A stretch of 64,000 nucleotides of DNA from Candidatus Spongiisociaceae bacterium. Lineage in GTDB: Bacteria; Actinomycetota; Acidimicrobiia; Spongiisociales; Spongiisociaceae. The position numbers were made by a program, and so were the translations under genes. Below, one piece after another: positions 7,459 through 49,879 of the stretch (positions are counted from its first letter, which is position 1; every line of letters begins with the position of its first letter). Below the pieces are notes generated by a model that saw only the letters and a program-made list of their open reading frames with translations, had not been told where the DNA came from and made no database searches. Location of the stretch: contig CBDCOH010000002.1 of the NCBI GenBank assembly GCA_965219685.1, positions 416,001-480,000 of the forward strand, read 5' to 3'.

Positions 7459-8877
7459 CTAGGCGGCGGCCTTCGCTTCCGCTAGCCAGGCGTCCACCTG
7501 ATCTTGGTTCGTGGCGATCCACTCCGCAACGAGGGTGGCGACATCCTCGCCGGCATCCTGCCTGACGATCTGGAGCGACACGTCTACGACGTTGAGCTTC
7601 ACGATCTCCAGGAGCTTGGCGGCGGCCGGGTGGTTGGCCAGCATGTCGTGGCGGGCCGAGGCGATCACATCGGCTGCCACCCAACCGATGTCGCAGACCC
7701 CGTCGTCTCCTGCGCTGGGGCAGGACTCGGGGCCGATCGCAGAAGTGGTGCCGGGCCTCTGGTCCCACTCCTCGCCGCCTTCACGGCCGAGCGGGTTCGA
7801 GTCGTCGATCGGGCTCTCGACCCCGATCCATACGACGTTGTCGCCCGGACGTAGAGCCGTGATGTAGGAGCTCGGGGTCCACGTGTACGCAACCATCGGC
7901 TCGCCGGCGTCTGCCTTGGCCGTGGCCTCAGCGAACATGGCGTCGTAACCGGCCAGCACCTGTTCGATGTTCTCCCAGCCCGAGAACGCTATCTGGCTCT
8001 GGATGATGTCGTCACAGGTCCAACTCTCCGGACATCCGTAGATGTCGGCTATGCCATTGCCCGGGTTTGGATCCTGGGCATCGTAGGCAGCTATGGCATC
8101 GGGATTGTTGTTCAGATCGTCGAGGGTGTTGATGCCGTACTCCTCCGCGAAGGACTTGGTCACCAGGTAACCCTGCAAGCCGCCGGCGAGCATCAACTCG
8201 CCTACCCGCCTGACATGCTCACCGACCAGCGAGCCATCCGGCATTTCGGCTGCGAGCCAGCTGTTGTGACCCGGATACCAACTGTTGACCCAGAAGTCGG
8301 CCTCGCCCTGGGCCATTGCCAGGTAGGCCAGGTTGGGGCCCAACTCGAGATCGGCCGGGTCGCTTACCTCGTAACCCAACTGCTGCATGAGCTGGCGCAT
8401 CAGTTCGGCCTGGAAGTAGCCGGTCGACCAGTTGGCGCGGGCCATCGTCAGGCTGACGCCCTCGCCGGGCAGCCTCATGGCCTCCTCTTCCATCATGGCC
8501 TGTTCCTCGGCGGCCCTCGCCGCGGCTTCCGCCTCCATGGCTTCGGCCTCGTCCAGCGCGGCTTGGGCCTCTGCCATCATGGCTTCGGCCTCGGCCTGTG
8601 CCTCTTCGGCCATGGCCCGTTCCTCGTCCGACATGGCCTCGGCCTCTTCGGCCATGGACGCCGCGTTCGCGGCGGCGGCTTCGGCGTCAGCCATCATGGC
8701 TTCGGCGTCGTCCATCATGGCTTGTGCCTCTGCCAGCGCGGCTTCGTCCACCACGACCTGTGTCACGGTGACCGGGGGTGCCGTCGTCGCAGGTGCGTCC
8801 GGAGTGTCATCTCCACAGGCAGCCGCCACGAGAGCGAGAACAGCCAAGACTGCGGTGACTCTGATACTGAGTTTCAT
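7459..8877 (-). CDS. proX: Glycine betaine/proline betaine ABC transporter substrate-binding lipoprotein (ProX-like) with Ala/Glu-rich stalk
   Basis: Lipobox VAAAC; ARANWSTGYFQ, DFWVNSWYP, YGCPESWTC, YTWTPS. Last gene of a proVWX-like operon. Confidence 0.85.
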   Translation of the reverse strand: MKLSIRVTAVLAVLALVAAACGDDTPDAPATTAPPVTVTQVVVDEAALAEAQAMMDDAEAMMADAEAAAANAASMAEEAEAMSDEERAMAEEAQAEAEAMMAEAQAALDEAEAMEAEAAARAAEEQAMMEEEAMRLPGEGVSLTMARANWSTGYFQAELMRQLMQQLGYEVSDPADLELGPNLAYLAMAQGEADFWVNSWYPGHNSWLAAEMPDGSLVGEHVRRVGELMLAGGLQGYLVTKSFAEEYGINTLDDLNNNPDAIAAYDAQDPNPGNGIADIYGCPESWTCDDIIQSQIAFSGWENIEQVLAGYDAMFAEATAKADAGEPMVAYTWTPSSYITALRPGDNVVWIGVESPIDDSNPLGREGGEEWDQRPGTTSAIGPESCPSAGDDGVCDIGWVAADVIASARHDMLANHPAAAKLLEIVKLNVVDVSLQIVRQDAGEDVATLVAEWIATNQDQVDAWLAEAKAAA

Positions 8878-8910
8878 TATGCTCCTTTCTTGTCTTGGTT
8901 ATGCATAGTG

Positions 8911-8942
8911 GGTTACGAGGGAGTGGACACTCCCTCGTAACC
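8911..8942. other. Perfect intergenic inverted repeat between proW1 and proX1
   Basis: GGTTACGAGGGAGTG-GA-CACTCCCTCGTAACC (15-bp arms). Confidence 0.75.
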
Positions 8943-8950
8943 GCAATGGC

Positions 8951-11097
8951 TTAAGTTGGGGCTCCGACTGTGGCCTCGGCCTCGGTATCGGCTTCCGCGT
9001 TCGTATCCAGAGGATCTCCGTAGACCTTGGCACGCCGGAACTCCTTGAGTACGGCCATTGTGGAAGCGACTATCAACAGTCCACCGACCATGGTGAGGAA
9101 GGCGCCGATACCGGTCAGGAACTGCATGTCACCGGAGCGGACATGCGTGAGAATCCATGCGAAGGCGATACACGTCACAGCGCTTCCCAACCCGGCTGTC
9201 ACGGTGCTCCATCGCCATCTCCATTGCTCATCGCCGCCGAATACACCCGCGGCGGGAAGGCCGGCCAACATGGCCAGCAGTCCGGCGATCAGTGCCCAGA
9301 GACCGAGTTGCGGGCCGCTACCAGCGACGCCGTTGGTGAACGATGCCTGCCTGGCTTGGGCCTCCAGGACGAGAAGATCGGCCGCGTATACGGCTTGATT
9401 CTCCGGATCCTCATCGGCCCTGCGCTTGAGATCCTCGATCTCCACGATCCGTGCTTCGGCTTCCGCCAAGGCTTCAGGTGTAAGGGCCCGATCGGGTCGG
9501 CTATCAGCACTCCAACCGGAGAATACGCCGAGAAGGAGCACGAGCATCGCGATCCCCAGGCCGATGATCCTCCCCCAGTTGATTCCCAACGGGAGCGGGT
9601 GGAGCGGCGAGTGTTTTGCGACCCTCATCCACAGAATCGCTCCGACCGAGGCGATAAGCCCTCCTGCGATCGCGAGGTACACACCGATTCCGTGGCCCGG
9701 ATCCACGGCGCCGGCCGCGATTCCAGCATCGGTTACCGACTGGGCGAGCAAATGAGCGGACGATACGACCAGTGTGGAGATCGCAGCAATGACCGCCCCG
9801 TCTGCGGCGAGCCACCGGGGAGTTCGGCCCGGTCGGGCGCCGAAGGCTGCCACCGCAAGCACTACGAACAGACCCAGCGCCAGCACAGTGATACCGAACC
9901 AGGATCCCCCGGATGCCGACAGCCCGGTGAAAACCTGTCCGGCAAGCTCGGCTTCGAGAGAAGCGTCTGTCCACCTTCCCCAGGCGCTGATCTTTCCGGC
10001 ATTAGATGTCCACGGGAGGAAGGCGCTCACGACCGTCACCAAGCCTCCGATGAGCGCCACCAGCATCGGGAGGCGCTCGCGGGTGGCGATCGGCGCGTAC
10101 TCATCTGCTTCCTGATACTCGACGATGGCGGTTGGCTCCGTATCGGGGATCAGCATCTCCGGATCCCGGCGGTGCTTCCAAGCCAGTTGGATGCGCTTGA
10201 AGAAGTTGGTGGACTCGGTGCCCTGACGCTGCGACATCCTGTCGAGCACGACTGCTACCAGGAAGAAAGCCAGGCCTCCCGCTGCGCCTTCGCCGACATC
10301 CTGGTTGTTTATGGCCCGTAGCAGCACGCGCCCGAGGCCGAACGAGCCCATGAGCGCGGCGATCCCGAGCATCGAGATGGCCAGGAGGAGGGTCTGGTTG
10401 ATACCGGTCATGATGGCGGGCCGGGCCAGCGGGATCTGAACGTCGAAGAGGACACGGGCCTCCGAGGCGCCGTAGGCGCGGGAAGCCTCGACCACATCCG
10501 GGGGGACCTGACGTATACCCAGGTTTGTGAGGCGGATCAATGGGGGGAGTGCGTACACCATTGTCACCATCGTCGCTGAGACCTCGCCCAATCCGAAGAA
10601 CCAGATGAAAGGCAACATGTAGACGAAGGAATGAACCACCTGCATAGCATCGAGAATCGGTCTGGTCACCTGCCAGATGCCGTCCACCCGGCCACAGGCG
10701 ATACCGACCGGGATCCCGATCACCACGCAAAGGATGACCGCCACGCCGATGAGACCGATCGTGGCAGCGGTTTCCTTCCAGTATCCGGTGTCCAGCAAAC
10801 CGCAGAGACTCAAGGACACCGCTACGAAGACAGCAACCTTCAGGTTGCGGGTTATCCACGCTACCAACGCCATCGCCAGCACGATCCAAACCCACGAGAT
10901 CTCGATAAGCAGGTCGCGGACAAGACTGCGGACCATGATCTCGAACGGCCAGGCGAAGATATCGAGCACCGTCGTGAGGTTGACCGCTATCCACCTGGCG
11001 GCCTGTTCCATCCAATCCCCGAAGGGGACCGTCCACTCGTCGAGGAGAGCGTTGTCCCAGATTGGTATCCGCTCCGAAGCCTGAGCGAGGACTGCGG

Positions 11098-11101
<4 letters not shown>
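8951..11101 (-). CDS. proW: Betaine ABC transporter permease (ProW-like) with long C-terminal membrane extension
   Basis: RPILDAMQ...PPLIRLTNLGIRQV..VVEASRAYG (EAA loop), IMTGINQT; 716 aa. Confidence 0.88.
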
Positions 11102-12321
<1,220 letters not shown>

Positions 12322-12418: not shown

Positions 12419-12453
12419 GTCTCGCGATACGGTACTGTTCCGCATCGTAGCAC
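12419..12453. promoter_or_regulatory. Tandem 17-bp palindromic operator upstream of proV1
   Basis: GTCTCGCGATACGGTAC-T-GTTCCGCATCGTAGCAC; same motif at four other promoters in the window. Confidence 0.75.
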
Positions 12454-12610: not shown

Positions 12611-14986
12611 TCAGCCGGTCAAGCGCGCTGCGCGGAGCCACGAGTCCGCAAGTTCGCGGTTGTCGCCGATCCATTCGGCGGCGTGGCGCCTGATGTCGTC
12701 CTCGCTGTTCTCACCGGCCTGCATGCGCACGTTCTGGAGGGCGATGTCGACCGGGTTGATGGTGAACAACTCGAACAGTCTGGCCGCGGCCGGGTTAGCG
12801 GCGAGGAAGTCGTTGTTGGCGATCACCGCGATATCCGCCGCGTCCCAACCGAGCAGGCACGGGTCGGTGGTGCATCTGTCGCCAATCGACGTCGGGCCTT
12901 CGATCTGGGTGGGCGAGATCGAGGGGTCCTCGTGGATGGAGACCCACACGGCATTGTCGCCCGGGCGCAGATCGCTCACGTAGTGAGAGGGCGCCCAGGT
13001 ATAGACCAGGTAGGGCTCCCCGGCTGCGTCCCTGGCGATAGCGTCCGCGATCATCGCGTCGTATCCACCGATATCGAACTGCTCGATGTTGTCCCAGCCC
13101 CCGTTCTCGATCCAAGCGTTGATGTTGGCGTGACAACCCCAACCTTCCGGGCAGCCGTAGATCTGGAGTACGCCGTCGCCCGGCGACGGGTCAGCCGCCT
13201 CGTATGTGGCGAACTGATCAGGATCCGCCAGCAGGGCATCGAGAGTGGTCAACCCGTTCGCGTCGGCGAAGGCCTTGTTGGTGATAAGCCCTTGCACGCC
13301 CGCTCTGGCCATCTCCCGGCCTAAGCGGGTGACATGGTCACTAACCAGGGAGCCGTCGGGCATCGTCCCTGCCAGGAACTGGTCGTGGTTCGGGAGCCAC
13401 GAGTTGACCCAGAAGTCGAACTCACCGTTGGCCATCGCCACATACGCGTTGGAGGGCGCAAGTTCCAGATCGGCCGGATCAGTCACCTCGTAACCCAACT
13501 CTGCGAGCAGCGCCGCATAGATAGCAGCCTGCATGTAGCCGGTCGACCAGTTAGCCCGCGCCATCGTCACCGAAACCCCCGAACCAGGTGTCTCGTCAAC
13601 CGGCACGCGGGCGACCGCCAGCCACACATCGACGGTGGCGCGGTTGTCGGCGATCCATTCGGCGGCGTGGCGCCTGATGTCGTCCTCGCTGTTCTCACCG
13701 GCCTGCATGCGCACGTTCTGGAGGGCGATGTCGACCGGGTTGATGGTGAACAACTCGAACAGTCTGGCCGCGGCCGGGTTAGCGGCGAGGAAGTCGTTGT
13801 TGGCGATCACCGCGATATCCGCCGCGTCCCAACCGAGCAGGCACGGGTCGGTGGTGCATCTGTCGCCAATCGACGTCGGGCCTTCGATCTGGGTGGGCGA
13901 GATCGAGGGGTCCTCGTGGATGGAGACCCACACGGCATTGTCGCCCGGGCGCAGATCGCTCACGTAGTGAGAGGGCGCCCAGGTATAGACCAGGTAGGGC
14001 TCCCCGGCTGCGTCCCTGGCGATAGCGTCCGCGATCATCGCGTCGTATCCACCGATATCGAACTGCTCGATGTTGTCCCAGCCCCCGTTCTCGATCCAAG
14101 CGTTGATGTTGGCGTGACAACCCCAACCTTCCGGGCAGCCGTAGATCTGGAGTACGCCGTCGCCCGGCGACGGGTCAGCCGCCTCGTATGTGGCGAACTG
14201 ATCAGGATCCGCCAGCAGGGCATCGAGAGTGGTCAACCCGTTCGCGTCGGCGAAGGCCTTGTTGGTGATAAGCCCTTGCACGCCCGCTCTGGCCATCTCC
14301 CGGCCTAAGCGGGTGACATGGTCACTAACCAGGGAGCCGTCGGGCATCGTCCCTGCCAGGAACTGGTCGTGGTTCGGGAGCCACGAGTTGACCCAGAAGT
14401 CGAACTCACCGTTGGCCATCGCCACATACGCGTTGGAGGGCGCAAGTTCCAGATCGGCCGGATCAGTCACCTCGTAACCCAACTCTGCGAGCAGCGCCGC
14501 ATAGATAGCAGCCTGCATGTAGCCGGTCGACCAGTTAGCCCGCGCCATCGTCACCGAAACCCCCGCCCCGGGGCCCTTGCCGGCCTCTTCGAGCGCCATC
14601 TGGGCTTCTTGTGCGGCCCTCTCGGCGTCTTGTGCGGCCCTCTCGGCGTCTTGTGCGACCTGCTGGGCATCCTCGAGTTCCATCTGGGCTTCTTCTGCGG
14701 CCTTCTGGGCTTCTTCCAGCGCCATCTGGGCCTCTTCGCCGCCTTCAGCAGCAGCTGCTTCCGCATCTTCCAGTGCAGCTTTGGCCGCCTCTAACTCGGC
14801 TTCTGCTTCCGCCAGAGCCGCGTTAGCCGCCTCTTCAGCAGCCTGTGCCGCCTCCTGCGCGCTGGTGTCGATGACGGTGACGGGCGCCTGGGTCTCGGCC
14901 GGGGCTTCCGGTTCGTCATCCCCGCACGCCACGGCCAGCAGTGAGAACACCGCCAGTAATGCCAAGGCTCTTCTCGTCCTCTTCAT
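12611..14986 (-). CDS. proX: Betaine ABC transporter substrate-binding lipoprotein with two tandem identical ProX-like domains
   Basis: Lipobox LAVAC, Ala/Glu/Gln-rich stalk, then the domain beginning GVSVTMARANWSTGYMQ present twice. Confidence 0.85.
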   Translation of the reverse strand: MKRTRRALALLAVFSLLAVACGDDEPEAPAETQAPVTVIDTSAQEAAQAAEEAANAALAEAEAELEAAKAALEDAEAAAAEGGEEAQMALEEAQKAAEEAQMELEDAQQVAQDAERAAQDAERAAQEAQMALEEAGKGPGAGVSVTMARANWSTGYMQAAIYAALLAELGYEVTDPADLELAPSNAYVAMANGEFDFWVNSWLPNHDQFLAGTMPDGSLVSDHVTRLGREMARAGVQGLITNKAFADANGLTTLDALLADPDQFATYEAADPSPGDGVLQIYGCPEGWGCHANINAWIENGGWDNIEQFDIGGYDAMIADAIARDAAGEPYLVYTWAPSHYVSDLRPGDNAVWVSIHEDPSISPTQIEGPTSIGDRCTTDPCLLGWDAADIAVIANNDFLAANPAAARLFELFTINPVDIALQNVRMQAGENSEDDIRRHAAEWIADNRATVDVWLAVARVPVDETPGSGVSVTMARANWSTGYMQAAIYAALLAELGYEVTDPADLELAPSNAYVAMANGEFDFWVNSWLPNHDQFLAGTMPDGSLVSDHVTRLGREMARAGVQGLITNKAFADANGLTTLDALLADPDQFATYEAADPSPGDGVLQIYGCPEGWGCHANINAWIENGGWDNIEQFDIGGYDAMIADAIARDAAGEPYLVYTWAPSHYVSDLRPGDNAVWVSIHEDPSISPTQIEGPTSIGDRCTTDPCLLGWDAADIAVIANNDFLAANPAAARLFELFTINPVDIALQNVRMQAGENSEDDIRRHAAEWIGDNRELADSWLRAARLTG
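12667..14565. repeat. Direct repeat of about 915 bp (12667-13581 and 13651-14565; 984-bp period) inside proX2
   Basis: Identical ORF-track translations in several frames at offset 984; boundaries read by eye. Confidence 0.92.
14607..14657. repeat. 21-bp tandem repeat (about 2.4 copies) encoding AQDAERA heptads
   Basis: TCTTGTGCGGCCCTCTCGGCG twice plus a partial copy. Confidence 0.85.
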
Positions 14987-15045: not shown

Positions 15046-17216
15046 TCAAGGCTGAGTCCTCGGCGCAACCAACCCGTCCACAGCGGCCTTCGGAGGGGTT
15101 CCCGGGTCCGGCTGACCAGGCTGATGGTCCGCTTGGTATACCTTTGCTCTCTGGAACTCCCTCAATACCGCTCGCATCGATGCGAAGAGGAAGAATCCGG
15201 CCAGCAGGCACAGGAACGCACCAGGGCCGCTGACGAAGTTGGGGTCCGAGACGCGCACCAGCGAAACGATCCACCCTGCCGACACGAGCATTACCCCTGC
15301 CCCCAGCGCGGAGACCGCGACGCTCCACCTCCAGCGCCGTCTGTCGTCCCTACCGAACAGTCCGGCCGCCGGGAGGGTGAGCAGGAACGCCACCCCGCCC
15401 ATCCCCAAGGTCAGATACCCGAGGCGGGAACCGGTCTCGCTGAAACCATCGGTGCGCACGATGTTCTTCCGCTGGGCTTCGGAAGCAAGCGCCGCGATCT
15501 GGGTGGCGTTCTCCGAAGCCTTGGACGGATCCTCACGCGCTTCCGTTTCGAGGCGGTCGATCTCGGCTTGCAACTCGGGAGTGATGACCGACGCTACTCG
15601 CGAGTCAACCGACCACGACGACAGTCCGGTCACCACCAGCATTCCCACAATCGCCACCGAGATGACCAAGCGGATGATGGACACGGTGGACGGCAGCGGG
15701 CGTAGAGGATTGTAGGGGGCGCTTCGCATCCATATAGCAGCACCGGCAACGGCGATGATCCCGCTACCCAGGGCTAGCCAAGCCCCGATCCCGTGGCTGT
15801 AGGACGTCGCCTCGGAAGGTGTATCGATCCAAAGGTAGGCGAACGCCGACGCCAGCAGGCCCACGGCCGAGATCAGGGCGCCGTCGGCCCCGAACCAGCG
15901 GGCCACCGTGCCCGGTCTGGTCAGTGTGGTCAGCGCGGAACCCAGTACTATCACGCTCGTTGCCAGCACGGCGATCCCGAAGAAACTACCCCCCTCGGCG
16001 GCCAACCCGTTGAAGCTCAGCCCGCCCAGGTCCAGGTCGGACGCCCGGCCGTACGCCGAGATATGGCCGGAGTCGCGTCCCCAAGGGAGGAAGACCGAGA
16101 TCACCGCCAGCACGGACGCGGCCAGGCCGATCCATGCGCCCACCCTCTCTGCGTTCCCCACCGGCGCCGGAGTTCCTTCAGAGACTTCGTCGGTGGCAAG
16201 GCTCTTCGCGGGTCCGTCCAGAAGCACTTCCGGGTCCCGCCGGTGCGCCCAGGCCATGCGAATACGGCCGAACAGGTTGGTACTCTCCCCGGCCTCGGTC
16301 TGGGTGATGCGATCCAGGACCACCGCGACGATGAACAGGGCGAGCCCGGCGGAGGTCGACAGCGGAGTGTCGATGTTCACCACCGCCCGGAACACCAGGA
16401 GGCCCAGCCCGCTAGCACCCATGATGGCGGCGATTCCGATCATCGATATCGACAGGAGGAGGGTCTGGTTCAGGCCGGTCATGATGGCGGCTCGGGCCAG
16501 CGGTAGCTGGACATCGATGAGCACCCGCAACTCCGAGGCGCCGTAGGCGCGCGACGCCTCGACGACGTCTGCGGGTACCTGCCGGATCCCGAGGTTGGTG
16601 AGGCGGATCAGCGGGGGAACGGCGAATACCATCGTCACCATGGTGGCCGGTTCGGGGCCGAGGCCGAAGAAGAAGATGAAGGGGATTATGTAGACGAAGG
16701 CGTGGACCACCTGCATGGCGTCCAGGACGGGGCGCACCACCTTCCATACGCCGTCGAAGCGGCCGCAAAGGACCCCGAGAGGGATCCCGAATACTGCGCA
16801 GATCACCACCGCAACCACGATCAGCCCTATGGTCGTGGTCGTCTCCGCCCAGAATTCGTTGCCCAGCAGCCCGCATACCGCCAGCAACACGGCAAGGCCG
16901 AAACCCACCCTGAAGTTGCGGGTCATCATCCCCACCACCAATACCAATCCGCATACGAGCACCCAGGACATGTCCGTGATCTCCCACCATGGGTGGTACT
17001 CGGGTCCGTCTACGAAGTTCCGGAACAGGAACGAGAACGGCCACTCGATGACGTCCAGGACGGATCCCATATTTCCGACGACCCAGTCCACGATCTCGTC
17101 CATCCAGGACCCGAACGGTATTTCCCAGGAGTCGAGAACGGTGTTGTCCCAGAACCGGGTGGTTTCCTCTGCGGAGCCACCTTGGGCGAGGATGGTTGTG
17201 GGTCGGGTGTGGGGGT

Positions 17217-17220
<4 letters not shown>
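15046..17220 (-). CDS. proW: Betaine ABC transporter permease (ProW-like) with long C-terminal membrane extension, paralog 2
   Basis: RPVLDAMQ, PPLIRLTNLGIRQV, VVEASRAYG; 724 aa; clearly diverged from proW1. Confidence 0.88.
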
Positions 17221-40706: not shown

Positions 40707-40741
40707 GTTCCGCATCGCGGAACCTTCTTGCGATACGGAAC
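40707..40741. promoter_or_regulatory. Tandem 17-bp palindromic operator upstream of the dehydrogenase-etfBA operon
   Basis: Perfect GTTCCGC-ATC-GCGGAAC, then C, then TTCTTGCGATACGGAAC; adjacent minus-strand TATGCT -10 candidate at 40742-40747. Confidence 0.8.
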
Positions 40742-40862
40742 AGCATACCTAGGGATCGGGGGGATTTCACCGCCTGACGGGAGGTTTGGTGCCGGGCGCG
40801 CGACCATCGGAAGGTGTAGGACACAAATCCGTTATTGTGTAGCCTGCCGCGGGCCGTTGAGG

Positions 40863-40903
40863 TATGCTGTTCCACGATGTAGGACTGTTCCGCATCATGA
40901 GAC
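40863..40903 (+). promoter_or_regulatory. -10 candidate (TATGCT) plus tandem 17-bp operator upstream of the corrinoid operon
   Basis: TATGCT-GTTCCACGATGTAGGAC-T-GTTCCGCATCATGAGAC. Confidence 0.75.
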
Positions 40904-41659: not shown

Positions 41660-42269
41660 GCAGAGGGATGGGATGCCTCCCCTGCTCGTCCTGGCGTGTG
41701 GGGCGCTGGCGTCGGAGATCCGGCACATTATCCGGATCAACGGCTTGAGCCACATCACCCTGATGTGCCTACCCGCCCGTTTTCACAACACACCGGACCG
41801 TATCGTTCCCGAACTCGAGACCCGGCTCGAACGTTTGGCGCACATGTACGAGAGGATCCTCATCGGGTACGCCGACTGCGGTACCGGGGGCCGGCTCGAC
41901 TCGCTGGTCGACCGCTGGGAGAACGTCGAGCGCCTTCCGGGAGCCCACTGCTACGAGTTCTTCGCGACCTCGCCGAGGTTCATGGAACTCCACGAGGCGG
42001 AACTGGGGACCTTCTACCTGACCGACTTTCTTGCCCGGCACTTCGACCGCCTGGTCTGGGATACGCTCGGGCTGTCCCGCCACCCCCAGTTGCGCGACAT
42101 GTACTTCGGTAACTACCGCAAGCTCGTCTACCTATCGCAGTTCGACGATCCGGAACTCTACAAGATGGCCGAGGAGGCAGCCGACCGCCTGGGCCTCGAG
42201 TTCCATCATCATCCGGTCGGTCTGGGAGATCTTGGTATGAGCTTGGAGAGATTCGCGGCGGCGGGTTGA
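41652..42269 (+). CDS. DUF1638-like protein (associated with corrinoid reactivation)
   Basis: LACGAL, CLPARFHNTP, GYADCGTGG, HCYEFF, GTFYLTDFL, MYFGNY; operon context. Confidence 0.8.
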   Translation: MSEQRDGMPPLLVLACGALASEIRHIIRINGLSHITLMCLPARFHNTPDRIVPELETRLERLAHMYERILIGYADCGTGGRLDSLVDRWENVERLPGAHCYEFFATSPRFMELHEAELGTFYLTDFLARHFDRLVWDTLGLSRHPQLRDMYFGNYRKLVYLSQFDDPELYKMAEEAADRLGLEFHHHPVGLGDLGMSLERFAAAG

Positions 42270-42314: not shown

Positions 42315-42701
42315 ATGACCGGACGACGAACCAGCGCGCGCAACCAGAGAGCGCGCTCGGAGTTGATCACGATCCTTTGGCGCGACATACCTGCGCAGGT
42401 CACAGCGCGATCGGGAAGGAACAAGATGGCGGTCGAGCTACCGGGACGTTTCCAGACCGCCATAGACCGAGCGGCGATGGTGGCGGGTTGCCACACCTAT
42501 AGCGAGTACATCGAGGAATGGCGCCGGACCGCCACTCCTTGCAGCCAGGACGTGGAGGCAGAGGCGAAGGCGGCAGCCGCCCGGATCGAGCACGAATTTC
42601 CCAACGAGAGATTGTTCCGCATTGCCGCGAACGGGGGATTCGACGAATCCGCGGGGTCCCGGGAACCGCTGCCGGACCGGAGCAAGGACGGGGGGCCATG
42701 A
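42315..42701 (+). CDS. Small 'virulence factor'-family protein typical of corrinoid methyltransferase clusters
   Basis: ILWRDIPAQV...RFQTAIDRAAM...YIEEWRR. Confidence 0.7.
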   Translation: MTGRRTSARNQRARSELITILWRDIPAQVTARSGRNKMAVELPGRFQTAIDRAAMVAGCHTYSEYIEEWRRTATPCSQDVEAEAKAAAARIEHEFPNERLFRIAANGGFDESAGSREPLPDRSKDGGP

Positions 42702-43606
42702 CGAGCACGGTCGTCAGTTCGGCAACCAGGGAAGTGGTCATCGGTCCGGATCGCCCCTTCGTGGTCATCGGGGAACGGATCAACCCGACCGGCCGTAAGC
42801 TGCTGGCGGCCGAGATGCGGGAGGGCGACTACCACCGTGTAGAGGCGGACGCCCGAGCCCAGGTGGCGGCCGGCGCCCACATGCTGGATGTGAACGCCGG
42901 TATACCGCTGGCCGACGAGCCGGCCATCCTGGCCGAGGCTATCCGACTGGTCCAGTCCCTCGTGGATGTTCCCCTGGCCATCGATTCGTCGATCGTCGAG
43001 GCGTTGGAAGCAGGTCTGGCCGTGTACGAGGGAAAGGCTCTGGTCAATTCGGTCACGGGCGAGGAGGAACGTCTGGAGCGAGTCCTTCCGCTGGTGGCCA
43101 GGTACGGGGCGGCGGTGGTGGCTATCTCCAACGATGAATCCGGCATTTCCGAGGACCCCGACGTGAGGTTCGAAGTCGCTGCCAAGATCGTGCGGCGGGC
43201 GGCCGACCACGGGATACCGGCAAGCGACGTGGTGGTCGATCCCCTGGTGATGCCGGTGGGAGCGATGCGGTTTGCGGGGGCTCAGGTCTTCCACATCCTG
43301 CGCCGGTTGCGCGAGGAACTCGGGGTCAACTCCACCTGCGGCGCCTCGAACATAAGTTTCGGTCTGCCGAACCGCCACGGGATCAACAGCGCCTTCCTTG
43401 CCATGGCGATCTCGAACGGCCTCACCTCGGCCATAACGAACCCGCTCGAGAGGGAGATCGTAACCGCGATCAAGGCTGCCGACGTGCTGACCGGCAATGA
43501 CCGAGACTGTGTCGCCTGGATCAGAACATTCCGTGAAACGGGAGCGGCGGCCGGCGGCCGGGGTCGCCGCCGCGGCGGCAGGCGACGGGCTGTCAGAGCC
43601 AGGTAG
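42698..43606 (+). CDS. Pterin-binding methyl-THF:corrinoid methyltransferase
   Basis: IGERINPTGRK, LDVNAG, LAIDSS, LVNSVTGE, DPLVMP, GASNISFGLP; ATG 42698 overlaps the upstream stop. Confidence 0.9.
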   Translation: MTSTVVSSATREVVIGPDRPFVVIGERINPTGRKLLAAEMREGDYHRVEADARAQVAAGAHMLDVNAGIPLADEPAILAEAIRLVQSLVDVPLAIDSSIVEALEAGLAVYEGKALVNSVTGEEERLERVLPLVARYGAAVVAISNDESGISEDPDVRFEVAAKIVRRAADHGIPASDVVVDPLVMPVGAMRFAGAQVFHILRRLREELGVNSTCGASNISFGLPNRHGINSAFLAMAISNGLTSAITNPLEREIVTAIKAADVLTGNDRDCVAWIRTFRETGAAAGGRGRRRGGRRRAVRAR

Positions 43607-43616
43607 GAGTCGATCC

Positions 43617-45650
43617 ATGGCCGCCCGCCCGGTTCAGGTCATCTTCACCCCCTCCGGAAGGAGGGGAACGGTCGACGCGGGGACAACCGTCCTCGAGGCT
43701 GCCCGCCACCTGGGTGTCGACATCGACTCGGTGTGCGGCGGGAGAGGCTTGTGCGGTCGCTGCCAGGTGACGCTCGGCTCGTCGGTGAGCATCCCCGGCA
43801 CCGAGGATCGCCTGTCGGCGCCGGATGCCGTCGAACTGCGTTTCAGGAACCGGCGCCGTCCCCTGCGCGAAGGTCATCGGCTCTCGTGCGCCGCCCGCCT
43901 GCGGGCCGACGCCGTAGTCGATGTCCCGCCATATAGCCAGGTGCGGAAGCAAGTGGTCCGGAAACGCGCCGAAGTGGTGGACATCCCGGTGGACCCCGTC
44001 GTGCGCCTGCACTACCTCGAGGTCGAGCCTCCCGACATGCACCGCCAAGCCTCGGATCTGGCCCGGGTGCTGCGGGCGCTGGAAGAGCAGTGGGACATCA
44101 TCGGGGTGGAGGTCGACCACCACGTTCTGGTAGTACTGCAGGACGCGCTGCGGGCCGGTGAGTGGACGATCACCCTCGCCGTGCACGATGGGGCCACAGT
44201 CACCGGAGTCTGGCCCGGTTTCCATGACGGGCCGGTGGGTGTGGCGATCGATGTGGGTTCGACGACGGTGGCGGGACATCTCTGCGACCTTTCGACCGGC
44301 TCGATCCTTGCATCAGCCGGGATGATGAATCCCCAGATCCGTTTCGGCGAGGACCTCATGAGCCGTGTCTCCTACGTGATGATGAACGACGGGGGCGAAC
44401 AGGAGTTGACGGGCGCCATCCGGGGCGCCCTGGACCAGTTGGTCGGCGAACTGGTGGAGGCGGCCGGGCTGCAACGGAGCGCGGTCCTTGAGGTGGCACT
44501 GGTCGGCAACCCCATCATGCATCACCTGGTTCTCGGAATCGATCCCCGGAGGCTGGGTGTGGCGCCCTTTGCCCTGGCCACCGACGGCCCGGTCAGGACG
44601 CCGGTCTCCACGATCGGAGTCCAGGCTCATCCGGGTGCCCGACTGTACGTCCTGCCCTGCGTGGCGGGTCACGTCGGCGCCGACGCGGCCGGCGCGGTGC
44701 TGTCGGAGGGTCCTCACCGCGGGCAGGACATCCAGTTGCTGGTCGACGTGGGCACCAACGCCGAGATCGTCCTGGGAAGCGCCGGACGTCTGCTCGCCGC
44801 CTCGAGTCCCACCGGTCCTGCCTTCGAGGGCGCTGAGATCAGTTCCGGTCAGCGAGCAACCCCGGGCGCGATCGAGAGGGTCCGGATCGATCGGACCAGC
44901 CTGGAGCCGCGTTTCAAAGTGATCGGTGCCACGATGTGGTCGGACGAGGAAGGCTTCGAGGAGGCCACGGCCAGCACCGGTGTCATCGGCATATGCGGCT
45001 CCGGGATCATCGAAGCGGTGGCGGAACTCGCCCTCGCCGGCGTGGTGTCATCGGACGGACTCATCGTCGATCCCGGGCGCACGGACCGGGTCACGTCGGA
45101 AGGCCGGTCTGCCACGTACCTGCTCCATGACGGGTCGTCCTCGGGCGGGACCCGCATCGCGATAACCCAGAACGACGTCAGGTCCATCCAGCTTGCCAAG
45201 GCCGCCCTCTACGCGGGTGTCCGGTTGCTCATGGACCACCTGGGAGTGGACCGGGTGGATGAGATCCGGCTGGCGGGTGCGTTCGGCAGCCACATCGATC
45301 CGGTCTACGCCATGGTCCTGGGCATGATTCCCGACTGCGACCTGGACCGTGTCTCGGCCGCAGGCAATGCCGCCGGTACCGGCGCCACGATGGCCCTGCT
45401 CAGCGGCACCGCGCGGCGTGAGATAGAGGGCCTTGTACGGAAGGTGGAGAAGATCGAGACCGCGGTGGCGCCGGGCTTCCAGCAGCACTTCGTGGCGGCG
45501 ATGGCCATTCCCCATGCCACGGCGGCCTTCGAGCAACTGGCCCGGCGGGTGGATCTGTCGGGTATCGCGTCGGGCGAGCCGACCGGCCACGGCCGGCATC
45601 GCCGCAGGACCGGACGCAGGAACCGCAGACGACGGGTAGGAAGGATTTGA
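43617..45650 (+). CDS. RamA/RACE-type ATP-dependent corrinoid reductive activase (2Fe-2S plus ASKHA, DUF4445-like)
   Basis: CGGRGLCGRC...LSC; AIDVGSTTV, GEDLMSRV, VDVGTNAE, PTGPAFEG, LAGAFG, GNAAGTGA. Confidence 0.9.
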   Translation: MAARPVQVIFTPSGRRGTVDAGTTVLEAARHLGVDIDSVCGGRGLCGRCQVTLGSSVSIPGTEDRLSAPDAVELRFRNRRRPLREGHRLSCAARLRADAVVDVPPYSQVRKQVVRKRAEVVDIPVDPVVRLHYLEVEPPDMHRQASDLARVLRALEEQWDIIGVEVDHHVLVVLQDALRAGEWTITLAVHDGATVTGVWPGFHDGPVGVAIDVGSTTVAGHLCDLSTGSILASAGMMNPQIRFGEDLMSRVSYVMMNDGGEQELTGAIRGALDQLVGELVEAAGLQRSAVLEVALVGNPIMHHLVLGIDPRRLGVAPFALATDGPVRTPVSTIGVQAHPGARLYVLPCVAGHVGADAAGAVLSEGPHRGQDIQLLVDVGTNAEIVLGSAGRLLAASSPTGPAFEGAEISSGQRATPGAIERVRIDRTSLEPRFKVIGATMWSDEEGFEEATASTGVIGICGSGIIEAVAELALAGVVSSDGLIVDPGRTDRVTSEGRSATYLLHDGSSSGGTRIAITQNDVRSIQLAKAALYAGVRLLMDHLGVDRVDEIRLAGAFGSHIDPVYAMVLGMIPDCDLDRVSAAGNAAGTGATMALLSGTARREIEGLVRKVEKIETAVAPGFQQHFVAAMAIPHATAAFEQLARRVDLSGIASGEPTGHGRHRRRTGRRNRRRRVGRI

Positions 45651-47191
45651 ATATGAGAACGCGGCGAAGACGGAGAACCGGGGGACGGGCAGCACGCCAG
45701 GCTATGCGGACAGCCCGGGTCATCGATCAGCAACCGTTCCTCACCCGCGCCCTCGGCCGCACCGAGGTGCTCTCCCAAGAGGGCATCGAGCTAATCGAGC
45801 ACAACGCCGACACGCTCCTCGAGGAGGTTGGCATCGAGATAATGAACTTCCCCGAGGCTCTCTCGATCTACGCGGACGCGGGCGCCGACGTCAGCGGTAC
45901 GCGGGTCCGGTTCCCTCGGGGAATGTGCCGGGAGATCATCACCCGCTCCGCGCCCGCCTCTTTCGTCCAGCACGCCCGGAACCCGGCCCGGTCGGTCACG
46001 ATCGGGGATCCGCACATAGTGTTCGCACCGGCTTACGGCTCCCCGTTCGTGCGCGATACCGACGCCGGTCGCCGCTACGCCACCATCGAGGACTTCAGGA
46101 ACTTCGCGAAGCTCGCCTACATGAGCCCGGCACTGCATCATGGTGGTGGAACCCTCTGCGAGCCGGTCGACCTACCGGTCAACAAGCGCCACTTCGACAT
46201 GCTCTACAGCCATGTCGTTTACCACGACAAGCCGTTCATGTCGTCGGTGACCAAGCCCGAAAGGGCCCAGGACTCGGTCGACGTCGTCAAGATCGTGTTC
46301 GGGGAGGACTTCGTGCGCGACAACACCGTGCTGATGGGCCTGTGCAATGCCAACTCCCCCCTTACATGGGACTACGCGATGCTGGGATCCGCCAAGGTCC
46401 TCGCGGAGAACAACCAGTGTTCCCTGATCACCCCGTTCATCATCGTCGGCGCCATGTCGCCGGTGACAGTGGCCGCGGCGGTGACCCAGACGCTTGCGGA
46501 AGCGCTGGCCGGCATAGCCTTCACCCAGATGGTCCGTCCGGGGGCGCCCGTCATCTTCGGCTCATTCGCCGCGTCGATGTCGATGCAGAGCGGGGCTCCC
46601 ACCTTCGGCACTCCGGAGCCGGCCCTCGTGCTCTACGCGGTTGGCCAACTTGCCTCGCGTCTCGGGATTCCGTTCCGATCGGGTGGCAACCTGACCGCCT
46701 CGAAGATCCCGGATGCCCAGGCTGCATACGAGAGCGCCACCACCTTCCTTCCCGCCCTCTCGGCAGGCGTGAACTTCGTTCTCCATACAGCCGGGTGGCT
46801 CGAGGGTGGCCTGACGATGGGGTACGAGAAGTTCGTGCTCGACGCCGACCAGGCCTCCATGATGGCGCGCCTCGTTGGGGGAGTGGACCTGACCGAGAAC
46901 GGCCAGGCCATGGAGCCGCTCCTGACCAACGGTCCCGGCCAGCATCACCTTGGCACTGCTCATACGATGGCCAATTTCGAAGAGGCCTTCTGGGTGTCGA
47001 GCCAGGCCGATATCGACAGTTTCGAACAGTGGGAGTTGAACGGGTCGTTGGACTCGGTGAGCAGGGCCAACGCGGAGTGGAAGCGCCTACTCTCGGAGTA
47101 CGAGCGGCCGCCCCTGGACGACGCGGTGCACGCCGAGTTGAGCGAGTGGATCGCAATGCGCAAGGCCTCCTTCCCGGACTCGGACGTTTGA
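45647..47191 (+). CDS. Trimethylamine methyltransferase family (MttB), non-pyrrolysine, MtgB-like
   Basis: FAPAYGSPFV, GGTLCEPVD, NANSPL, GAMSPVT, GAPTFGTPE, HTAGWLEGGL; no in-frame amber codon. Confidence 0.9.
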   Translation: MNMRTRRRRRTGGRAARQAMRTARVIDQQPFLTRALGRTEVLSQEGIELIEHNADTLLEEVGIEIMNFPEALSIYADAGADVSGTRVRFPRGMCREIITRSAPASFVQHARNPARSVTIGDPHIVFAPAYGSPFVRDTDAGRRYATIEDFRNFAKLAYMSPALHHGGGTLCEPVDLPVNKRHFDMLYSHVVYHDKPFMSSVTKPERAQDSVDVVKIVFGEDFVRDNTVLMGLCNANSPLTWDYAMLGSAKVLAENNQCSLITPFIIVGAMSPVTVAAAVTQTLAEALAGIAFTQMVRPGAPVIFGSFAASMSMQSGAPTFGTPEPALVLYAVGQLASRLGIPFRSGGNLTASKIPDAQAAYESATTFLPALSAGVNFVLHTAGWLEGGLTMGYEKFVLDADQASMMARLVGGVDLTENGQAMEPLLTNGPGQHHLGTAHTMANFEEAFWVSSQADIDSFEQWELNGSLDSVSRANAEWKRLLSEYERPPLDDAVHAELSEWIAMRKASFPDSDV

Positions 47192-47192
47192 G

Positions 47193-48056
47193 ATGACCGG
47201 TCCATCCAACTCTCGCTCCGGTCTTGACCCCGCCGCTAGGGCGGCGGTCAGACGGATCCTCGAACACCCTAAGTTCGAGGTCCTTCCCCTCAAGAACGTG
47301 CTCGACCAGGTGGGGTGGCTGCCGGAAGGCGCCACGGTGTCCATCACAGCCTCGCCCACCAAGACGCTCGAGGACACGATGAGCGTGGCCGCAGAACTCC
47401 GTCTGCGGGGCTTCGACGTGATACCTCACCTCTCGGCCCGCATGACCCACGACAAGACGCATCTAGCCGGGTTGTTGGGGCGAATGGAGCAGTTGGAGAT
47501 CTCGAGTGTCTTCCTGGTCGGCGGCGATGCGCCGCAGCGCGGGATCTTCCCTGACGCCTACTCCCTGCTGATGGCCATGGACGATCTCGGCCATCACCTC
47601 ACCGACATAGGGGTGACTTCCTACCCCGAGGGACATGCCGTGATCCCCGACCCGAAGCTGCGCCAGGCTCTTCACGACAAGCAGCCCCATGCGGCATACA
47701 TGACGACCCAGATGTGTTTCGACCCCGCAGCGATCGGCGCCTTCATATCCGGTTGCCGGGCCGACGGCATCGCTCTCCCTGTCCAGATCGGGATTCCCGG
47801 GGTGGCAGAACGGTTGAAGCTGATCCAGATCTCGACCCGGATCGGGGTAGGTCAGTCCGTGCGGTTCCTCTCCAAGCACCGGGGGCTGGTGAGCCGGTTC
47901 ATCAAACCCGGCGGGTACGCACCCGAGGACCTTCTCGAAGGCCTGGCGCCGGTGGTCGTAGATCCCGCCGCAGCCATCGTCGGAGTCCACATCTATACGT
48001 TCAACCAGTGCGAGACCACCGAGCGCTGGCGCCAGGAGTACCTGGCGAGCTTGTAG
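47193..48056 (+). CDS. metF: Methylenetetrahydrofolate reductase family protein
   Basis: IPHLSAR, LVGGD, SYPEGH, TTQMCFD, HIYTFNQ. Confidence 0.85.
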   Translation: MTGPSNSRSGLDPAARAAVRRILEHPKFEVLPLKNVLDQVGWLPEGATVSITASPTKTLEDTMSVAAELRLRGFDVIPHLSARMTHDKTHLAGLLGRMEQLEISSVFLVGGDAPQRGIFPDAYSLLMAMDDLGHHLTDIGVTSYPEGHAVIPDPKLRQALHDKQPHAAYMTTQMCFDPAAIGAFISGCRADGIALPVQIGIPGVAERLKLIQISTRIGVGQSVRFLSKHRGLVSRFIKPGGYAPEDLLEGLAPVVVDPAAAIVGVHIYTFNQCETTERWRQEYLASL

Positions 48057-48100
48057 TTCTCCGTCGAGCCAATGGCGCGGTGCGGTCCGGGAGCCCCGAA

Positions 48101-49879
48101 GTGAAGCCCTCGCCAACGCCGGATCCCATGGTTTCCGGGGGCGTCTCGGCTCGGTTCGATGACCTGGTTGACCGGCACCTATCGCTCAACCTGCACGATC
48201 CGTACCGGGTGTTGGCGACCAACCGCACCGAGGAGGTCCGCGATGTGATCGAGAGGGCGGAGGCGGAGTCGCTGGCCGGGGCGTGGGTGGCCGGTTTCGT
48301 GGCCTACGAGGCGGCGCCCGCCTTCGATGATGCGTTGGTTGTACGGGCGCCTCGGCCCGACCTCCCCCTTGCCTGGTTCGCAGCCTTCCGTTCCTCGGGC
48401 ACCGAGCCGGCTCGACGCGGAGGGGGGTACCGGATGGCTCCTTGGCGTCCGGAGATTTCCGCCGGCGAGTACGAGGCGGACGTGACCGCCATCCAGGAGT
48501 CGATCACCATCGGCGACACCTATCAGGCCAACTACACGTTGCGGCTACGGGGGAGCGTGGAGGGGGATCTGGGATCCGTATATGCCGACCTGCTCCAAGC
48601 GCAAAGGGGCGGTCATCACGCATTGATAAGAACCGGTCGCCACACGGTGGTGTCGGCTTCGCCGGAGCTGTTCTTCAGATGGGACGGTCGAAGGCTGGAG
48701 AGCAGGCCGATGAAGGGGACGATGGCGCGCGGCCGGTGGGAACAGGAGGATCGTCGCCACCGGGAACGTCTGCTTGCCTCGGGCAAGGACCGGGCGGAGA
48801 ACGTCATGATCGTCGACCTTCTGCGTAACGACCTGGGCAGGGTTGCCCGGTTCGGTACGGTGCAGGTCGAGAGGCTGTTCGAGATCGAGCGCTTCGAGAC
48901 GGTCTGGCAGATGACCTCGACGGTCGCCGCCGACACCCTGCCCGGCATAAGCCTGTTCGACATCTTCGCGGCCATGTTCCCGTGCGGCTCGGTGACCGGG
49001 GCGCCGAAGGCCAGGACCATGGAGATAGTCCGGTCGCTGGAGATCTCCCCGCGCGGGGTCTACTGCGGTGCGATCGGGTTGCTGGCGCCACCCGGGTCGG
49101 GGCGGCCCAGGGCCGAGTTCTCAGTGGCGATCCGCACTGTGGTGGTGGACGAGCGGGACGGTTCGGCCGAGTACGGCGTCGGCGGGGGTGTGGTACACGA
49201 GTCGACCGCCGCGGACGAGTACCGGGAGGCGATGGTGAAGGCAAGGGTGCTGGAGCGGCGGAGAGCACCCGTGACCCTGCTCGAGACCATGCGCTGGGAT
49301 CCAGGAGAAGGGATCTGGTTGCTCGAACGGCATCTGGACCGCCTCCGATCCTCGGCCCGATACTTCGGGATCACCCTTCCCGAGGTGGAGATCGCCGGGT
49401 TGCTGGAGAGGGTGGAAGGTGAGGCTCCGCTCCGGGTCCGCCTGCTGGTCCCCGAGCAGGGCCGACCGTGCGCCGAGATGGCGCCGCTGGTCCCAGGTTC
49501 CCCGATCGTGGGTCTCGCGATCGACAGCGTAGCGGTGGACCGATCCGACATCCTCCGGTACCACAAGACCACCTGCCGGGATCGCTACGAGGAGGCGTCT
49601 GCCAGGCACCCCGCGGCCGATGACGTGGTGCTGGTCAACGAACTCGGTCAACTGGTCGAGACGACGATCGCCAATCTCGCGGTACGGGTCGGGGATGAGT
49701 GGCTGACCCCACCCATCGAGGCCGGATGCCTTCCGGGAACCTACCGGCAGGAACTCGTCGATGCCGGTGTCCTCCGCGAGCGCCGCCTCGCGGTGGGCGA
49801 TCTGCTCTCATCCGACGAGATAGCCGTGATCAACTCGGTCCAGGGGTGGCGGCCTGCCAAGCTGCTCGATATCAAATAA
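48101..49879 (+). CDS. pabB: Fused aminodeoxychorismate synthase component I / 4-amino-4-deoxychorismate lyase
   Basis: GDTYQAN, SASPELFF, RPMKGT, AENVMIVDLLRNDL, FPCGSVTGAPK; then LLETMRW...HKTT...ETTIAN...GCLPG. Start GTG 48101 or ATG 48128. Confidence 0.9.
   Translation: MKPSPTPDPMVSGGVSARFDDLVDRHLSLNLHDPYRVLATNRTEEVRDVIERAEAESLAGAWVAGFVAYEAAPAFDDALVVRAPRPDLPLAWFAAFRSSGTEPARRGGGYRMAPWRPEISAGEYEADVTAIQESITIGDTYQANYTLRLRGSVEGDLGSVYADLLQAQRGGHHALIRTGRHTVVSASPELFFRWDGRRLESRPMKGTMARGRWEQEDRRHRERLLASGKDRAENVMIVDLLRNDLGRVARFGTVQVERLFEIERFETVWQMTSTVAADTLPGISLFDIFAAMFPCGSVTGAPKARTMEIVRSLEISPRGVYCGAIGLLAPPGSGRPRAEFSVAIRTVVVDERDGSAEYGVGGGVVHESTAADEYREAMVKARVLERRRAPVTLLETMRWDPGEGIWLLERHLDRLRSSARYFGITLPEVEIAGLLERVEGEAPLRVRLLVPEQGRPCAEMAPLVPGSPIVGLAIDSVAVDRSDILRYHKTTCRDRYEEASARHPAADDVVLVNELGQLVETTIANLAVRVGDEWLTPPIEAGCLPGTYRQELVDAGVLRERRLAVGDLLSSDEIAVINSVQGWRPAKLLDIK

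Follow-up and report, generated by a model that had tools for sequence, protein, structure and literature searches.

The window analysed here is a stretch of 64,000 nucleotides (nt), C2:416001-480000, of the 4.42-Mb genome of Candidatus Spongiisociaceae bacterium, which has G+C content of 65% and completeness of 96.7%. Open reading frames (ORFs) were chosen by G+C content at third codon positions (GC3) and then scanned against Pfam and NCBIfam. A plus-strand operon codes, in this order, for a corrinoid protein, a DUF1638 protein, a small PF13769 protein, a pterin methyltransferase, a RACo activase, a non-pyrrolysine (non-Pyl) MttB, a homologue of methylenetetrahydrofolate reductase (MTHFR), and a PabB-PabC fusion. 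The window also holds two ATP-binding cassette (ABC) operons for betaine, a gene for formate-tetrahydrofolate ligase (fhs) followed by a selenocysteine (Sec) formate dehydrogenase (FDH), and a dimethylglycine (DMG) oxidase/dehydrogenase homologue with EtfAB. We consider it likely that the window represents the Acidimicrobiia version of cobalamin-dependent MtgBCD betaine demethylation with tetrahydrofolate (THF)-linked one-carbon (C1) oxidation, placed under one operator. Every item of the gene list in the original prediction, made from the bare sequence, is present in the Pfam and NCBIfam scans; the PF13769 gene was absent from that list.

The MttB gene is an uninterrupted ORF of 514 aa with no in-frame stop, and thus it has no Pyl codon. 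MttB was placed among members of its family by bit scores to Protein Data Bank (PDB) entries; its best solved match is 4yyc with 659 bits, while D. hafniense MtgB (2qne/9yce) and Pyl-MttB (7xcl) gave 378 and 107 bits, respectively. The Pyl-dependent trimethylamine methyltransferase MttB was rejected as an identity, with no in-frame TAG and a TIGR02369 score of 248.8 bits against a cut-off of 525. In tblastn against plasmid-collection records, a record of S. meliloti was found with mtgB, a cobalamin-binding protein, DUF1638, a methyl-THF:cobalamin methyltransferase, an ASKHA protein, and bmt. By eye, the aligned residues of its MtgB show no difference from PDB 4yyc. Because the core operon is 52-77% identical to this S. 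meliloti cluster, the system was assigned to the aerobic MtgBCD(E) glycine-betaine:THF methyltransferase kind. The corrinoid protein is below the NCBIfam cut-offs for MtgC (206 vs. 370 and 164.5 vs. 310). The MtgD ORF is open from 42518, with the ATG at 42698 as the likely start, and the PabB-PabC ORF is open from 47714, so that its start at 48053 is approximate.

Relatives were searched with the MttB protein as query, and 80 loci were kept. Fifteen of them have 77-98% MttB identity and are labelled Acidimicrobiia, 'Candidatus Spongiisociaceae/Spongiisocius', or 'bacterium', and the remaining 65, with 56-63% identity, are labelled Alphaproteobacteria or Pseudomonadota. The synteny counts cover 13 Acidimicrobiia loci that span the region (15 for the stretch MttB-MTHFR-PabBC) and 12 Actinomycetota loci of other families. 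The block from the corrinoid gene to MttB is kept in 13/13 Acidimicrobiia loci, the MTHFR homologue directly follows MttB in 15/15, PabBC comes after the MTHFR gene in 14/15, and the DMG dehydrogenase-Etf genes are upstream of the corrinoid gene in 12/13. The corrinoid, RACo, and MttB genes are kept in all 12 loci from other Actinomycetota families, one of which (L108) has fhs within the same cluster, and the PF13769 gene is present in 13/13 Acidimicrobiia loci and 12/12 of the others. In an even sample of Actinomycetota, 45 of 401 genomes (this one included) have an MttB match at E<=1e-60, and 37 of the 400 other genomes have an MttB orthologue of at least 59% identity. Judged by these counts, the mtg gene set is not rare in Actinomycetota genomes.

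A repeat search of the window revealed a 38-nt family with four copies. The predicted operator is a 35-bp element with two-fold symmetry, composed of two 17-bp dyads GTTCCRC-N3-GYGGAAC spaced by 1 nt. With up to 3 mismatches, its core 23-mer matches three sites in the window (six strand matches), where 0.00 were expected according to 100 shuffles. In the whole genome, the 23-mer has no matches with up to 2 mismatches apart from those at window positions 12425, 18707, and 18907, all intergenic. Four sites are added at 4 mismatches; one of them, at window position 40875, is upstream of the corrinoid gene, and the other three lie elsewhere. An extra site with 3 mismatches, at C2:2820067 close to tRNA-Sec, was judged to be chance, since it falls within the ORF of a MIP channel and no sel genes adjoin it. 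Shorter dyads of 15 and 17 bp at 2 mismatches gave 160 and 182 matches in the genome, which is too noisy for regulon membership. The predicted operator is shared by five transcription units, namely both ABC operons, fhs-FDH, the corrinoid operon, and DMG dehydrogenase-EtfAB. The original prediction had placed the same operator upstream of five units, which agrees with the four full sites (three near-perfect and one weaker) and one variant found here. The variant, S5, consists of a perfect 17-bp dyad GTTCCGC-ATC-GCGGAAC plus a half-site.

The sites are kept in relatives. In an alignment of 14 intergenic sequences, all 20 invariant columns are at window positions 40858-40899, inside or next to S4, and S5 is the second conserved block. 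The site upstream of the corrinoid gene was found at up to 5 mismatches in 11 of 13 Acidimicrobiia relatives; the two others (L019 and L020) are above this limit, and the alignment shows a diverged copy there. The operator pattern was also scanned in the genomes of five relatives (G001-G005), with 1 to 4 distinct sites per genome and 0 for the reversed-pattern control, and sites outside the mtg locus were fetched in G001, G002, G004, and G005. The motif is in the gap between the ABC ATPase gene and fhs in all four, and also upstream of the second ABC ATPase gene in G001, G002, and G005; the match in G003 is solely upstream of the corrinoid gene. As the relatives keep the sites at the same positions, the regulon is considered conserved within the family, and the synteny check proposed in the original prediction came out in its favour for both genes and operators. 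For the neighbours of a further pattern match in G001, at C1:318744 (L097), Pfam gave nothing informative. A GC-rich hairpin CTTCCCGCTGGCGGGGGAAG is located at window positions 40916-40935, between S4 and the corrinoid start codon. L011, L012, and L014, the closest relatives, share this hairpin, which has no Rfam match. The whole window gave 0 matches to Rfam at gathering thresholds, so no cobalamin, THF, S-adenosylmethionine (SAM), or glycine riboswitch was detected in it. Coordinates of the features are listed in Table 1.

Table 1. Genes and predicted operator sites in the window (positions are those of the window)
Feature	Position	Strand	Evidence or remark
OpuAC-type betaine-binding protein, ABC operon 1	7459..8877	-	PF04069, 104.7 bits
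ABC permease, operon 1	8951..11101	-	PF00528
ABC ATPase with CBS domains, operon 1	11098..12321	-	start moved to GTG aligning with operon 2 copy
Predicted operator S1	12419..12453	.	98 nt upstream of operon 1 ATPase start; same position in relatives L093, L096
Tandem double OpuAC binding protein, ABC operon 2	12611..14986	-	PF04069, 2 stretches, 205.3 bits
ABC permease, operon 2	15046..17220	-	Pfam
ABC ATPase with CBS domains, operon 2	17217..18440	-	Pfam
Predicted operator S2	18701..18735	.	perfect 23-bp core palindrome; 261 nt upstream of operon 2 ATPase
Predicted operator S3	18901..18935	.	55 nt upstream of fhs
Formate-tetrahydrofolate ligase (Fhs)	18990..20759	+	PF01268, 822.6 bits
Glyoxalase-like protein between fhs and FDH gene	20743..21159	+	PF18029; kept in 2/4 relatives (L093, L096)
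FdhF/FdhH-type FDH catalytic subunit, Sec	21209..23092	+	TIGR01591, 608.5 bits, profile positions 52-672
NuoE-NuoF fusion, NAD(H)/FMN module of FDH	23313..25094	+	Pfam, NCBIfam
NuoG-like Fe-S protein ending in Molybdop_Fe4S4	25087..26067	+	TIGR01591 positions 1-51 at aa 249-299
Major facilitator superfamily (MFS) transporter after FDH genes	26271..27452	+	Pfam
EtfA	36399..37388	-	Pfam
EtfB	37385..38152	-	Pfam
DMG oxidase/dehydrogenase homologue (DAO + FAO_M + GCV_T folate domain)	38173..40683	-	Pfam
Predicted operator S5 (variant)	40707..40745	.	24 nt upstream of DMG dehydrogenase gene
Predicted operator S4 (weaker full site)	40869..40903	.	49 nt upstream of corrinoid gene
MtgC-type corrinoid protein	40952..41659	+	PF02607 + PF02310; 76.5% identical to S. 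meliloti cluster protein
DUF1638 protein, corrinoid reactivation accessory	41652..42269	+	PF07796; 52.4% identical to S. meliloti
Small PF13769 ('Virulence_fact') protein	42315..42701	+	PF13769, 67.9 bits; 43.8% identical to S. meliloti cluster gene
MtgD-type methyl-THF:corrinoid methyltransferase	42698..43606	+	NF005719, 361 bits vs. cut-off 259; 63.4% identical to S. meliloti
RACo/RamA-type ASKHA reductive activase with 2Fe-2S domain	43497..45650	+	RACo domains; 54.8% identical to S. meliloti; start uncertain
Non-pyrrolysine MttB-superfamily methyltransferase (MtgB-like)	45647..47191	+	PF06253, 709.5 bits; 59.6% identical to S. meliloti
Divergent MTHFR	47193..48056	+	weak Pfam match, 39.8 bits
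PabB-PabC fusion (aminodeoxychorismate synthase + lyase)	48053..49879	+	TIGR00553, 339.9 bits vs. cut-off 328.4

The regulator that binds the operator is rather likely to be an IclR-family protein encoded outside the window. Dyads of the same type are located directly upstream of three IclR genes in the genome (C2:404938, C2:3844187/3844371, and C2:2523644), and 8 of the 12 mtg loci from other Actinomycetota families include an IclR gene. For the IclR gene C2:2522884-2523624, an orthologue with 68% identity exists in relative G002 and is immediately preceded by an operator match. C2:2522884-2523624 is the best single candidate, with a chance that we put somewhat short of even. The paper on the proteobacterial MtgBCD(E) system names no regulator for it; in a text search, the word 'regulator' occurred there once, among the references (PMC12478193).

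The two ABC operons carry duplicated genes. Their ATPase genes are 100% identical at DNA level over exactly 1224 nt, and the identity ends at the start codon. The double OpuAC gene of operon 2 has a perfect internal repeat of 915 nt (12667-13581 vs. +984). The ATPase copies of relative L096 share 98.6% identity, and for the internal OpuAC repeat the identity comes to 97.6% in L096 and 97.9% in L093. The ATPase pair and the OpuAC repeat, compared as sequences, indicate concerted evolution by gene conversion.

The catalytic subunit of FDH has one in-frame TGA at 21446-21448, corresponding to U80 in SCNRT-U-HAPSV, and this TGA is kept in 4/4 relatives. A hairpin is predicted after it, with energy no better than that of shuffled sequences (z -0.30). 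The subunit is without the N-terminal Fe4S4 domain, and the NuoG-like protein is, by its profile positions, the detached N-terminal part of an FdsA-type subunit. The FdsA-type large subunit is hence split and permuted, with the catalytic part first and the NuoG-like Fe-S part last, after NuoEF. The order fhs-(glyoxalase)-FDH-NuoEF, with the catalytic part detached and ahead of NuoEF, is kept in 4/4 relatives. NuoG-like and MFS genes follow in both of the relatives' loci that reach there (L094 and L095), and the loci of L093 and L096 end inside NuoEF. The original prediction called for a genome search for folD and the sel genes, and both were located outside the window: one FolD, adjoining purH, and the selenocysteine machinery of tRNA-Sec, selA, selB, and a Sec-containing selD. 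As no PurU above cut-off was found in the genome, Fhs is the sole step from formyl-THF to formate that was identified.

The search of the genome turned up no MTHFR homologue besides the one in the window. Among solved structures, this protein is closest to S6MTHFR (7xg9), with 110.9 bits compared with 28.7 bits for Thermus MTHFR, and it has no BLAST match at E<=0.001 to the MTHFR of the S. meliloti cluster. S6MTHFR is described as the founding 'type 4' MTHFR, which oxidises methyl-THF downstream of demethylases (PMC11868366). The mycobacterial flavin-independent MTHFR type was set aside, as the PDB codes there are 7WMW and 7WMZ (PMC10586308), whereas 7xg9 is S6MTHFR.

Glycine betaine is bound in D. 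hafniense MtgB by residues Y97, R312, H348, and F356, and the aromatic pair of the binding site varies between substrates, as in MtcB, MtpB, MthB, and MtyB (PMC13080624). Residues of the MttB substrate site, like those of the MTHFR signature, were mapped by hand on alignments. In the HMMER alignment, Y97, R312, and H348 correspond to Y130, R344, and H380 of the window MttB, so that three of the four residues are kept; the S. meliloti protein (4yyc) shares the segment GWLEGGL with the window MttB. The best solved relative of the adjoining DMG homologue is Arthrobacter DMG oxidase 1pj5, with 524.4 bits. This neighbour favours glycine betaine as the substrate and fits dimethylglycine as the product, and on these features MttB may be specific for betaine. 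GbcAB glycine betaine monooxygenase (NF058607/NF058606) was rejected, as two of about nine Rieske matches were tested and reached 145.4 and 122.2 bits where the cut-off is 670; its reductase was rejected likewise, with 116.2 bits where the cut-off is 500.

The flow through the system, which we infer from homology in an in silico reading, would be as follows. Two OpuA-type ABC systems would import betaine, and MtgB would methylate Co(I) on MtgC, leaving dimethylglycine. MtgD would hand the methyl group to THF, while RamA/RACo and DUF1638, and perhaps the PF13769 protein, would keep the corrinoid reduced. The MTHFR homologue would oxidise methyl-THF to methylene-THF, and FolD, Fhs, and the cytoplasmic Sec-FDH with its NuoEF/NuoG-like module would take the carbon on as far as CO2, with a gain of ATP and probably of NADH. 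Removal of the second methyl group, as methylene-THF, would fall to the DMG oxidase/dehydrogenase homologue with EtfAB. The chain given in the original prediction, from betaine import through MttB/corrinoid/pterin transfer, reverse MTHFR, FolD, and Fhs to Sec-FDH, is supported by homology and context.

Several results weigh against this reading. Type 4 is characterised by the L48-P49, R78, and P268 motifs and by the methyl-THF contacts C219 and F269 of S6MTHFR (PMC11868366), and only two of the six residues (P49 and F269) are kept in the window MTHFR, with L48 changed to S, R78 to M, C219 to I, and P268 to T. Because of this count, the protein falls outside type 4, and the oxidative direction given to it above is tentative. 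In MttB, F356, which is one of two aromatic betaine-binding residues, aligns to G388, with W384 near. Other quaternary amines are plausible substrates, given the carnitine-type genes, the proline-betaine-like genes, and the two further MttB paralogues present in the window and its flank. No operator at up to 4 mismatches was found at FolD, MtgE, or the sel genes in the genome-wide scan. A sigma-70-like consensus scan of the two divergent spacers gave 0 promoter-like sites, which is uninformative for an actinobacterium with 65% GC. No regulator gene lies in the regulon itself, and the best matches here of the eight IclR proteins from mtg loci are divided among C2:2522884-2523624 (4/8), C2:3842xxx (3/8), and C2:405xxx (1/8).

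Methionine synthesis bears on how the operon is to be understood. The original prediction stated rightly that the window has no homocysteine methyltransferase; a Bmt/MtgE-type enzyme of 373 aa is coded at C2:4167536-4168657 (NF005718, 364.8 bits vs. cut-off 338). It is 47% identical to S. meliloti Bmt, adjoins another OpuAC system, and is the single match of PF02574 in the genome. The MetH activation domain PF02965 was found neither in the genome nor in 12/12 family relatives, and it is present in 2/8 genomes from other families of the order. The proposed search for bmt/metH thus yielded a Bmt/MtgE homologue and no classical MetH. Full-length MetE was not found in the genome, which has only a weak MetE-like protein of 407 aa. 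This protein (C2:570055-571278), encoded beside a DUF7714 gene, has the C-terminal MetE catalytic domain alone (68 bits) and is possibly a methionine synthase of the core-MetE type. In R. pomeroyi, MtgC and MtgD are indispensable for making methionine with MtgE, mtgC and mtgD mutants are methionine auxotrophs, and a co-located cluster exists in S. meliloti (PMC12478193). As MetH and full-length MetE were not found and a Bmt/MtgE homologue is present, MtgC and MtgD are expected to serve in methionine synthesis also, and by analogy they probably run in reverse too, as a split methionine synthase. For the same reason, the original view that methyl groups pass to THF and are oxidised stands as regards the route, by homology and context, and is weakened as regards oxidation only. 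An operon that is mainly a housekeeping split methionine synthase/folate module (MtgC, MtgD, MTHFR, and PabBC, with MtgE elsewhere), with betaine as a side supply of methyl groups and not of energy, would suit these observations, the location of the sole MTHFR homologue in this operon, and the co-location of the folate-synthesis gene PabBC in most Acidimicrobiia loci. We hold this quite improbable, since one operator is set on two betaine importers, DMG dehydrogenase-EtfAB, and fhs-FDH, which is a catabolic and energy-yielding set, and since MtgE is without operator, in agreement with the constitutive MtgE of the proteobacterial system (PMC12478193).

It is also unlikely, though less so, that MttB acts on another quaternary amine, such as proline betaine, carnitine, gamma-butyrobetaine, choline, or similar, with the remaining pathway unchanged. 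The loss of F356, in a superfamily in which the aromatic pair varies (PMC13080624), would allow for it. The window has a cis-3-hydroxy-L-proline-dehydratase-like enolase (355 bits, cut-off 500), a pyrroline-2-carboxylate reductase-like protein, and a Rieske oxygenase, and the left flank has carnitine-type BKACE and 3-hydroxyacyl-CoA dehydrogenase/thioesterase genes. The divergent neighbour that shares the operator is, however, the DMG oxidase homologue with EtfAB, MttB is 59.6% identical to the protein of the S. meliloti MtgB cluster, three of its binding-site residues (Y, R, and H) are retained, and two MttB paralogues (26% and 37% identical) are free for other substrates. A dispersed repeat or a recombination scar of the duplicated ABC genes, taken for an operator, is very improbable. 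The identical ATPase genes show that gene conversion is active locally, and two of the five sites precede them, but the identity stops exactly at the start codon, so the sites are outside the converted tract. Moreover, the genes downstream of S3, S4, and S5 are unrelated, no blocks other than the sites are conserved in the otherwise divergent spacers, and the positions of the sites are kept in the orthologous spacers of the relatives that were checked. Betaine demethylation coupled to C1 oxidation under one operator is preferred over these three alternatives.

CbiC was not found in the genome (96.7% complete), and this one marker suggests that corrin must be acquired. Given a single unusual MTHFR and PabBC in the operon, and with MetH, MetE, and CbiC missing, a wider reading can be put forward tentatively: the whole methyl economy of this sponge-symbiont lineage might be tied to host-derived betaines, with methionine and C1 energy both obtained via one corrinoid protein and one IclR-type regulon that includes Sec-FDH. 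As a part of it, the corrinoid or MTHFR module might have in the conserved PF13769 protein a third accessory that has gone unrecognised, which is equally doubtful.

Further genes for amine and methyl metabolism lie in the window and around it. A second MttB-family gene, 26% identical, is at C2:414083-415474, just left of the window (TIGR02369, 323 bits); it adjoins a third gene similar to DMG dehydrogenase, and the region continues into window positions 1-2010. Further left are BKACE, 3-hydroxyacyl-CoA dehydrogenase/thioesterase, and a carnitine-type IclR gene with its own double dyad at C2:404938. Window positions 28214-36325 and 2200-3174 hold a set that suggests catabolism of proline betaine or hydroxyproline betaine, with a hydroxyproline-dehydratase-like enolase, a zinc alcohol dehydrogenase, a class-III aminotransferase, a DMG dehydrogenase-like protein, RpiR, a Rieske oxygenase, and a pyrroline-2-carboxylate reductase-like protein. 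The Rieske oxygenase is distantly GbcA-like (145 bits vs. cut-off 670), and no operator site was found in these two segments. An AT-rich palindrome followed by about eight copies of the 7-nt unit CTAGCAA is at 36330-36398, between the Rieske gene and etfA. Two more corrinoid methyltransferase sets, at C2:4280380-4285432 and C2:1008025-1009895, are built on URO-D-family (PF01208) enzymes, and one of the two sets includes a corrinoid protein, RACo, and pterin methyltransferase of its own.

The original prediction took the arrangement to be undescribed in this phylum as a regulon; the same components and the same logic of THF-linked C1 oxidation have been published for aerobic Proteobacteria (PMC12478193). 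B12-dependent demethylation of glycine betaine with its oxidation was first described in marine proteobacteria in 2025, and in aerobic R. pomeroyi, MtgB (PF06253), MtgC, MtgD, RamA, DUF1638, and MetF2 feed THF-linked C1 oxidation (PMC12478193, PNAS 2025). Actinomycetota make up 5% of ocean mtgC reads (PMC12478193). Our literature search, which did not cover the text of one listed paper or the supplementary genome lists of PMC12478193, where Actinomycetota are possibly named, found no description of the system in sponge Acidimicrobiia or other Actinomycetota. In sponges, transcripts of non-Pyl mttB were observed and left unexplained (PMC9999580). By homology, the system is the Acidimicrobiia member of one largely already described in another phylum. 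New here are the phylum and habitat, the predicted operator and regulon, the PF13769 gene in the operon, the divergent sole MTHFR, and the split and permuted Sec-FDH. The aerobic B12-dependent route of betaine demethylation would hence extend to Actinomycetota and sponge-associated Acidimicrobiia. Five predicted operator sites, together with a few IclR candidates, namely C2:2522884-2523624, C2:404947-405798, and C2:3842xxx, make a concrete regulon proposal, and the PF13769 protein and the sole MTHFR, with its direction and electron acceptor, are flagged for THF-linked methyl oxidation.

Among known systems, the MtgBCD(E) of Ruegeria pomeroyi and S. meliloti has the same MtgB, MtgC, MtgD, RamA, and DUF1638 and an adjacent MTHFR; as here, MtgE is encoded elsewhere, MetH is absent, and DMG/sarcosine and THF C1-oxidation genes lie close by (PMC12478193). 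The window differs from it in belonging to Actinomycetota (Acidimicrobiia) with a sponge habitat label, in having the core genes in one operon with PabBC, in its divergent single-domain MTHFR, and in a defined predicted operator and regulon with importers and fhs-Sec-FDH. MtgABC of Desulfitobacterium hafniense, which performs anaerobic betaine:THF transfer, has likewise a non-Pyl TIM-barrel enzyme of the MttB family with the shared Y, R, and H residues (PMC13080624), whereas here the fourth residue is replaced, the corrinoid protein scores below the MtgC cut-offs, and the host is of aerobic type (ETF, Rieske oxygenases). In Phaeobacter inhibens, the three-part split MetH with RamA and DUF1638 has separate corrinoid, pterin, and homocysteine modules in a similar way (as cited in PMC12478193), while here the corrinoid and pterin modules are in an operon with MttB and have an operator in common with betaine-uptake, DMG-dehydrogenase, and fhs-FDH genes. 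In ligM-metF-ligH of Sphingobium lignivorans SYK-6 and CmuAB of Methylorubrum CM4, methyl-THF from a demethylase is oxidised by a dedicated MTHFR, and in SYK-6 the formate-THF ligase gene ligH is in the same operon (PMC11868366). The solved structure nearest to the window MTHFR is S6MTHFR, of which two of six type-4 residues are kept, and the methyl donor and the first enzyme are different, a corrinoid-dependent MttB here and the THF-dependent LigM in SYK-6 (PMC11868366).

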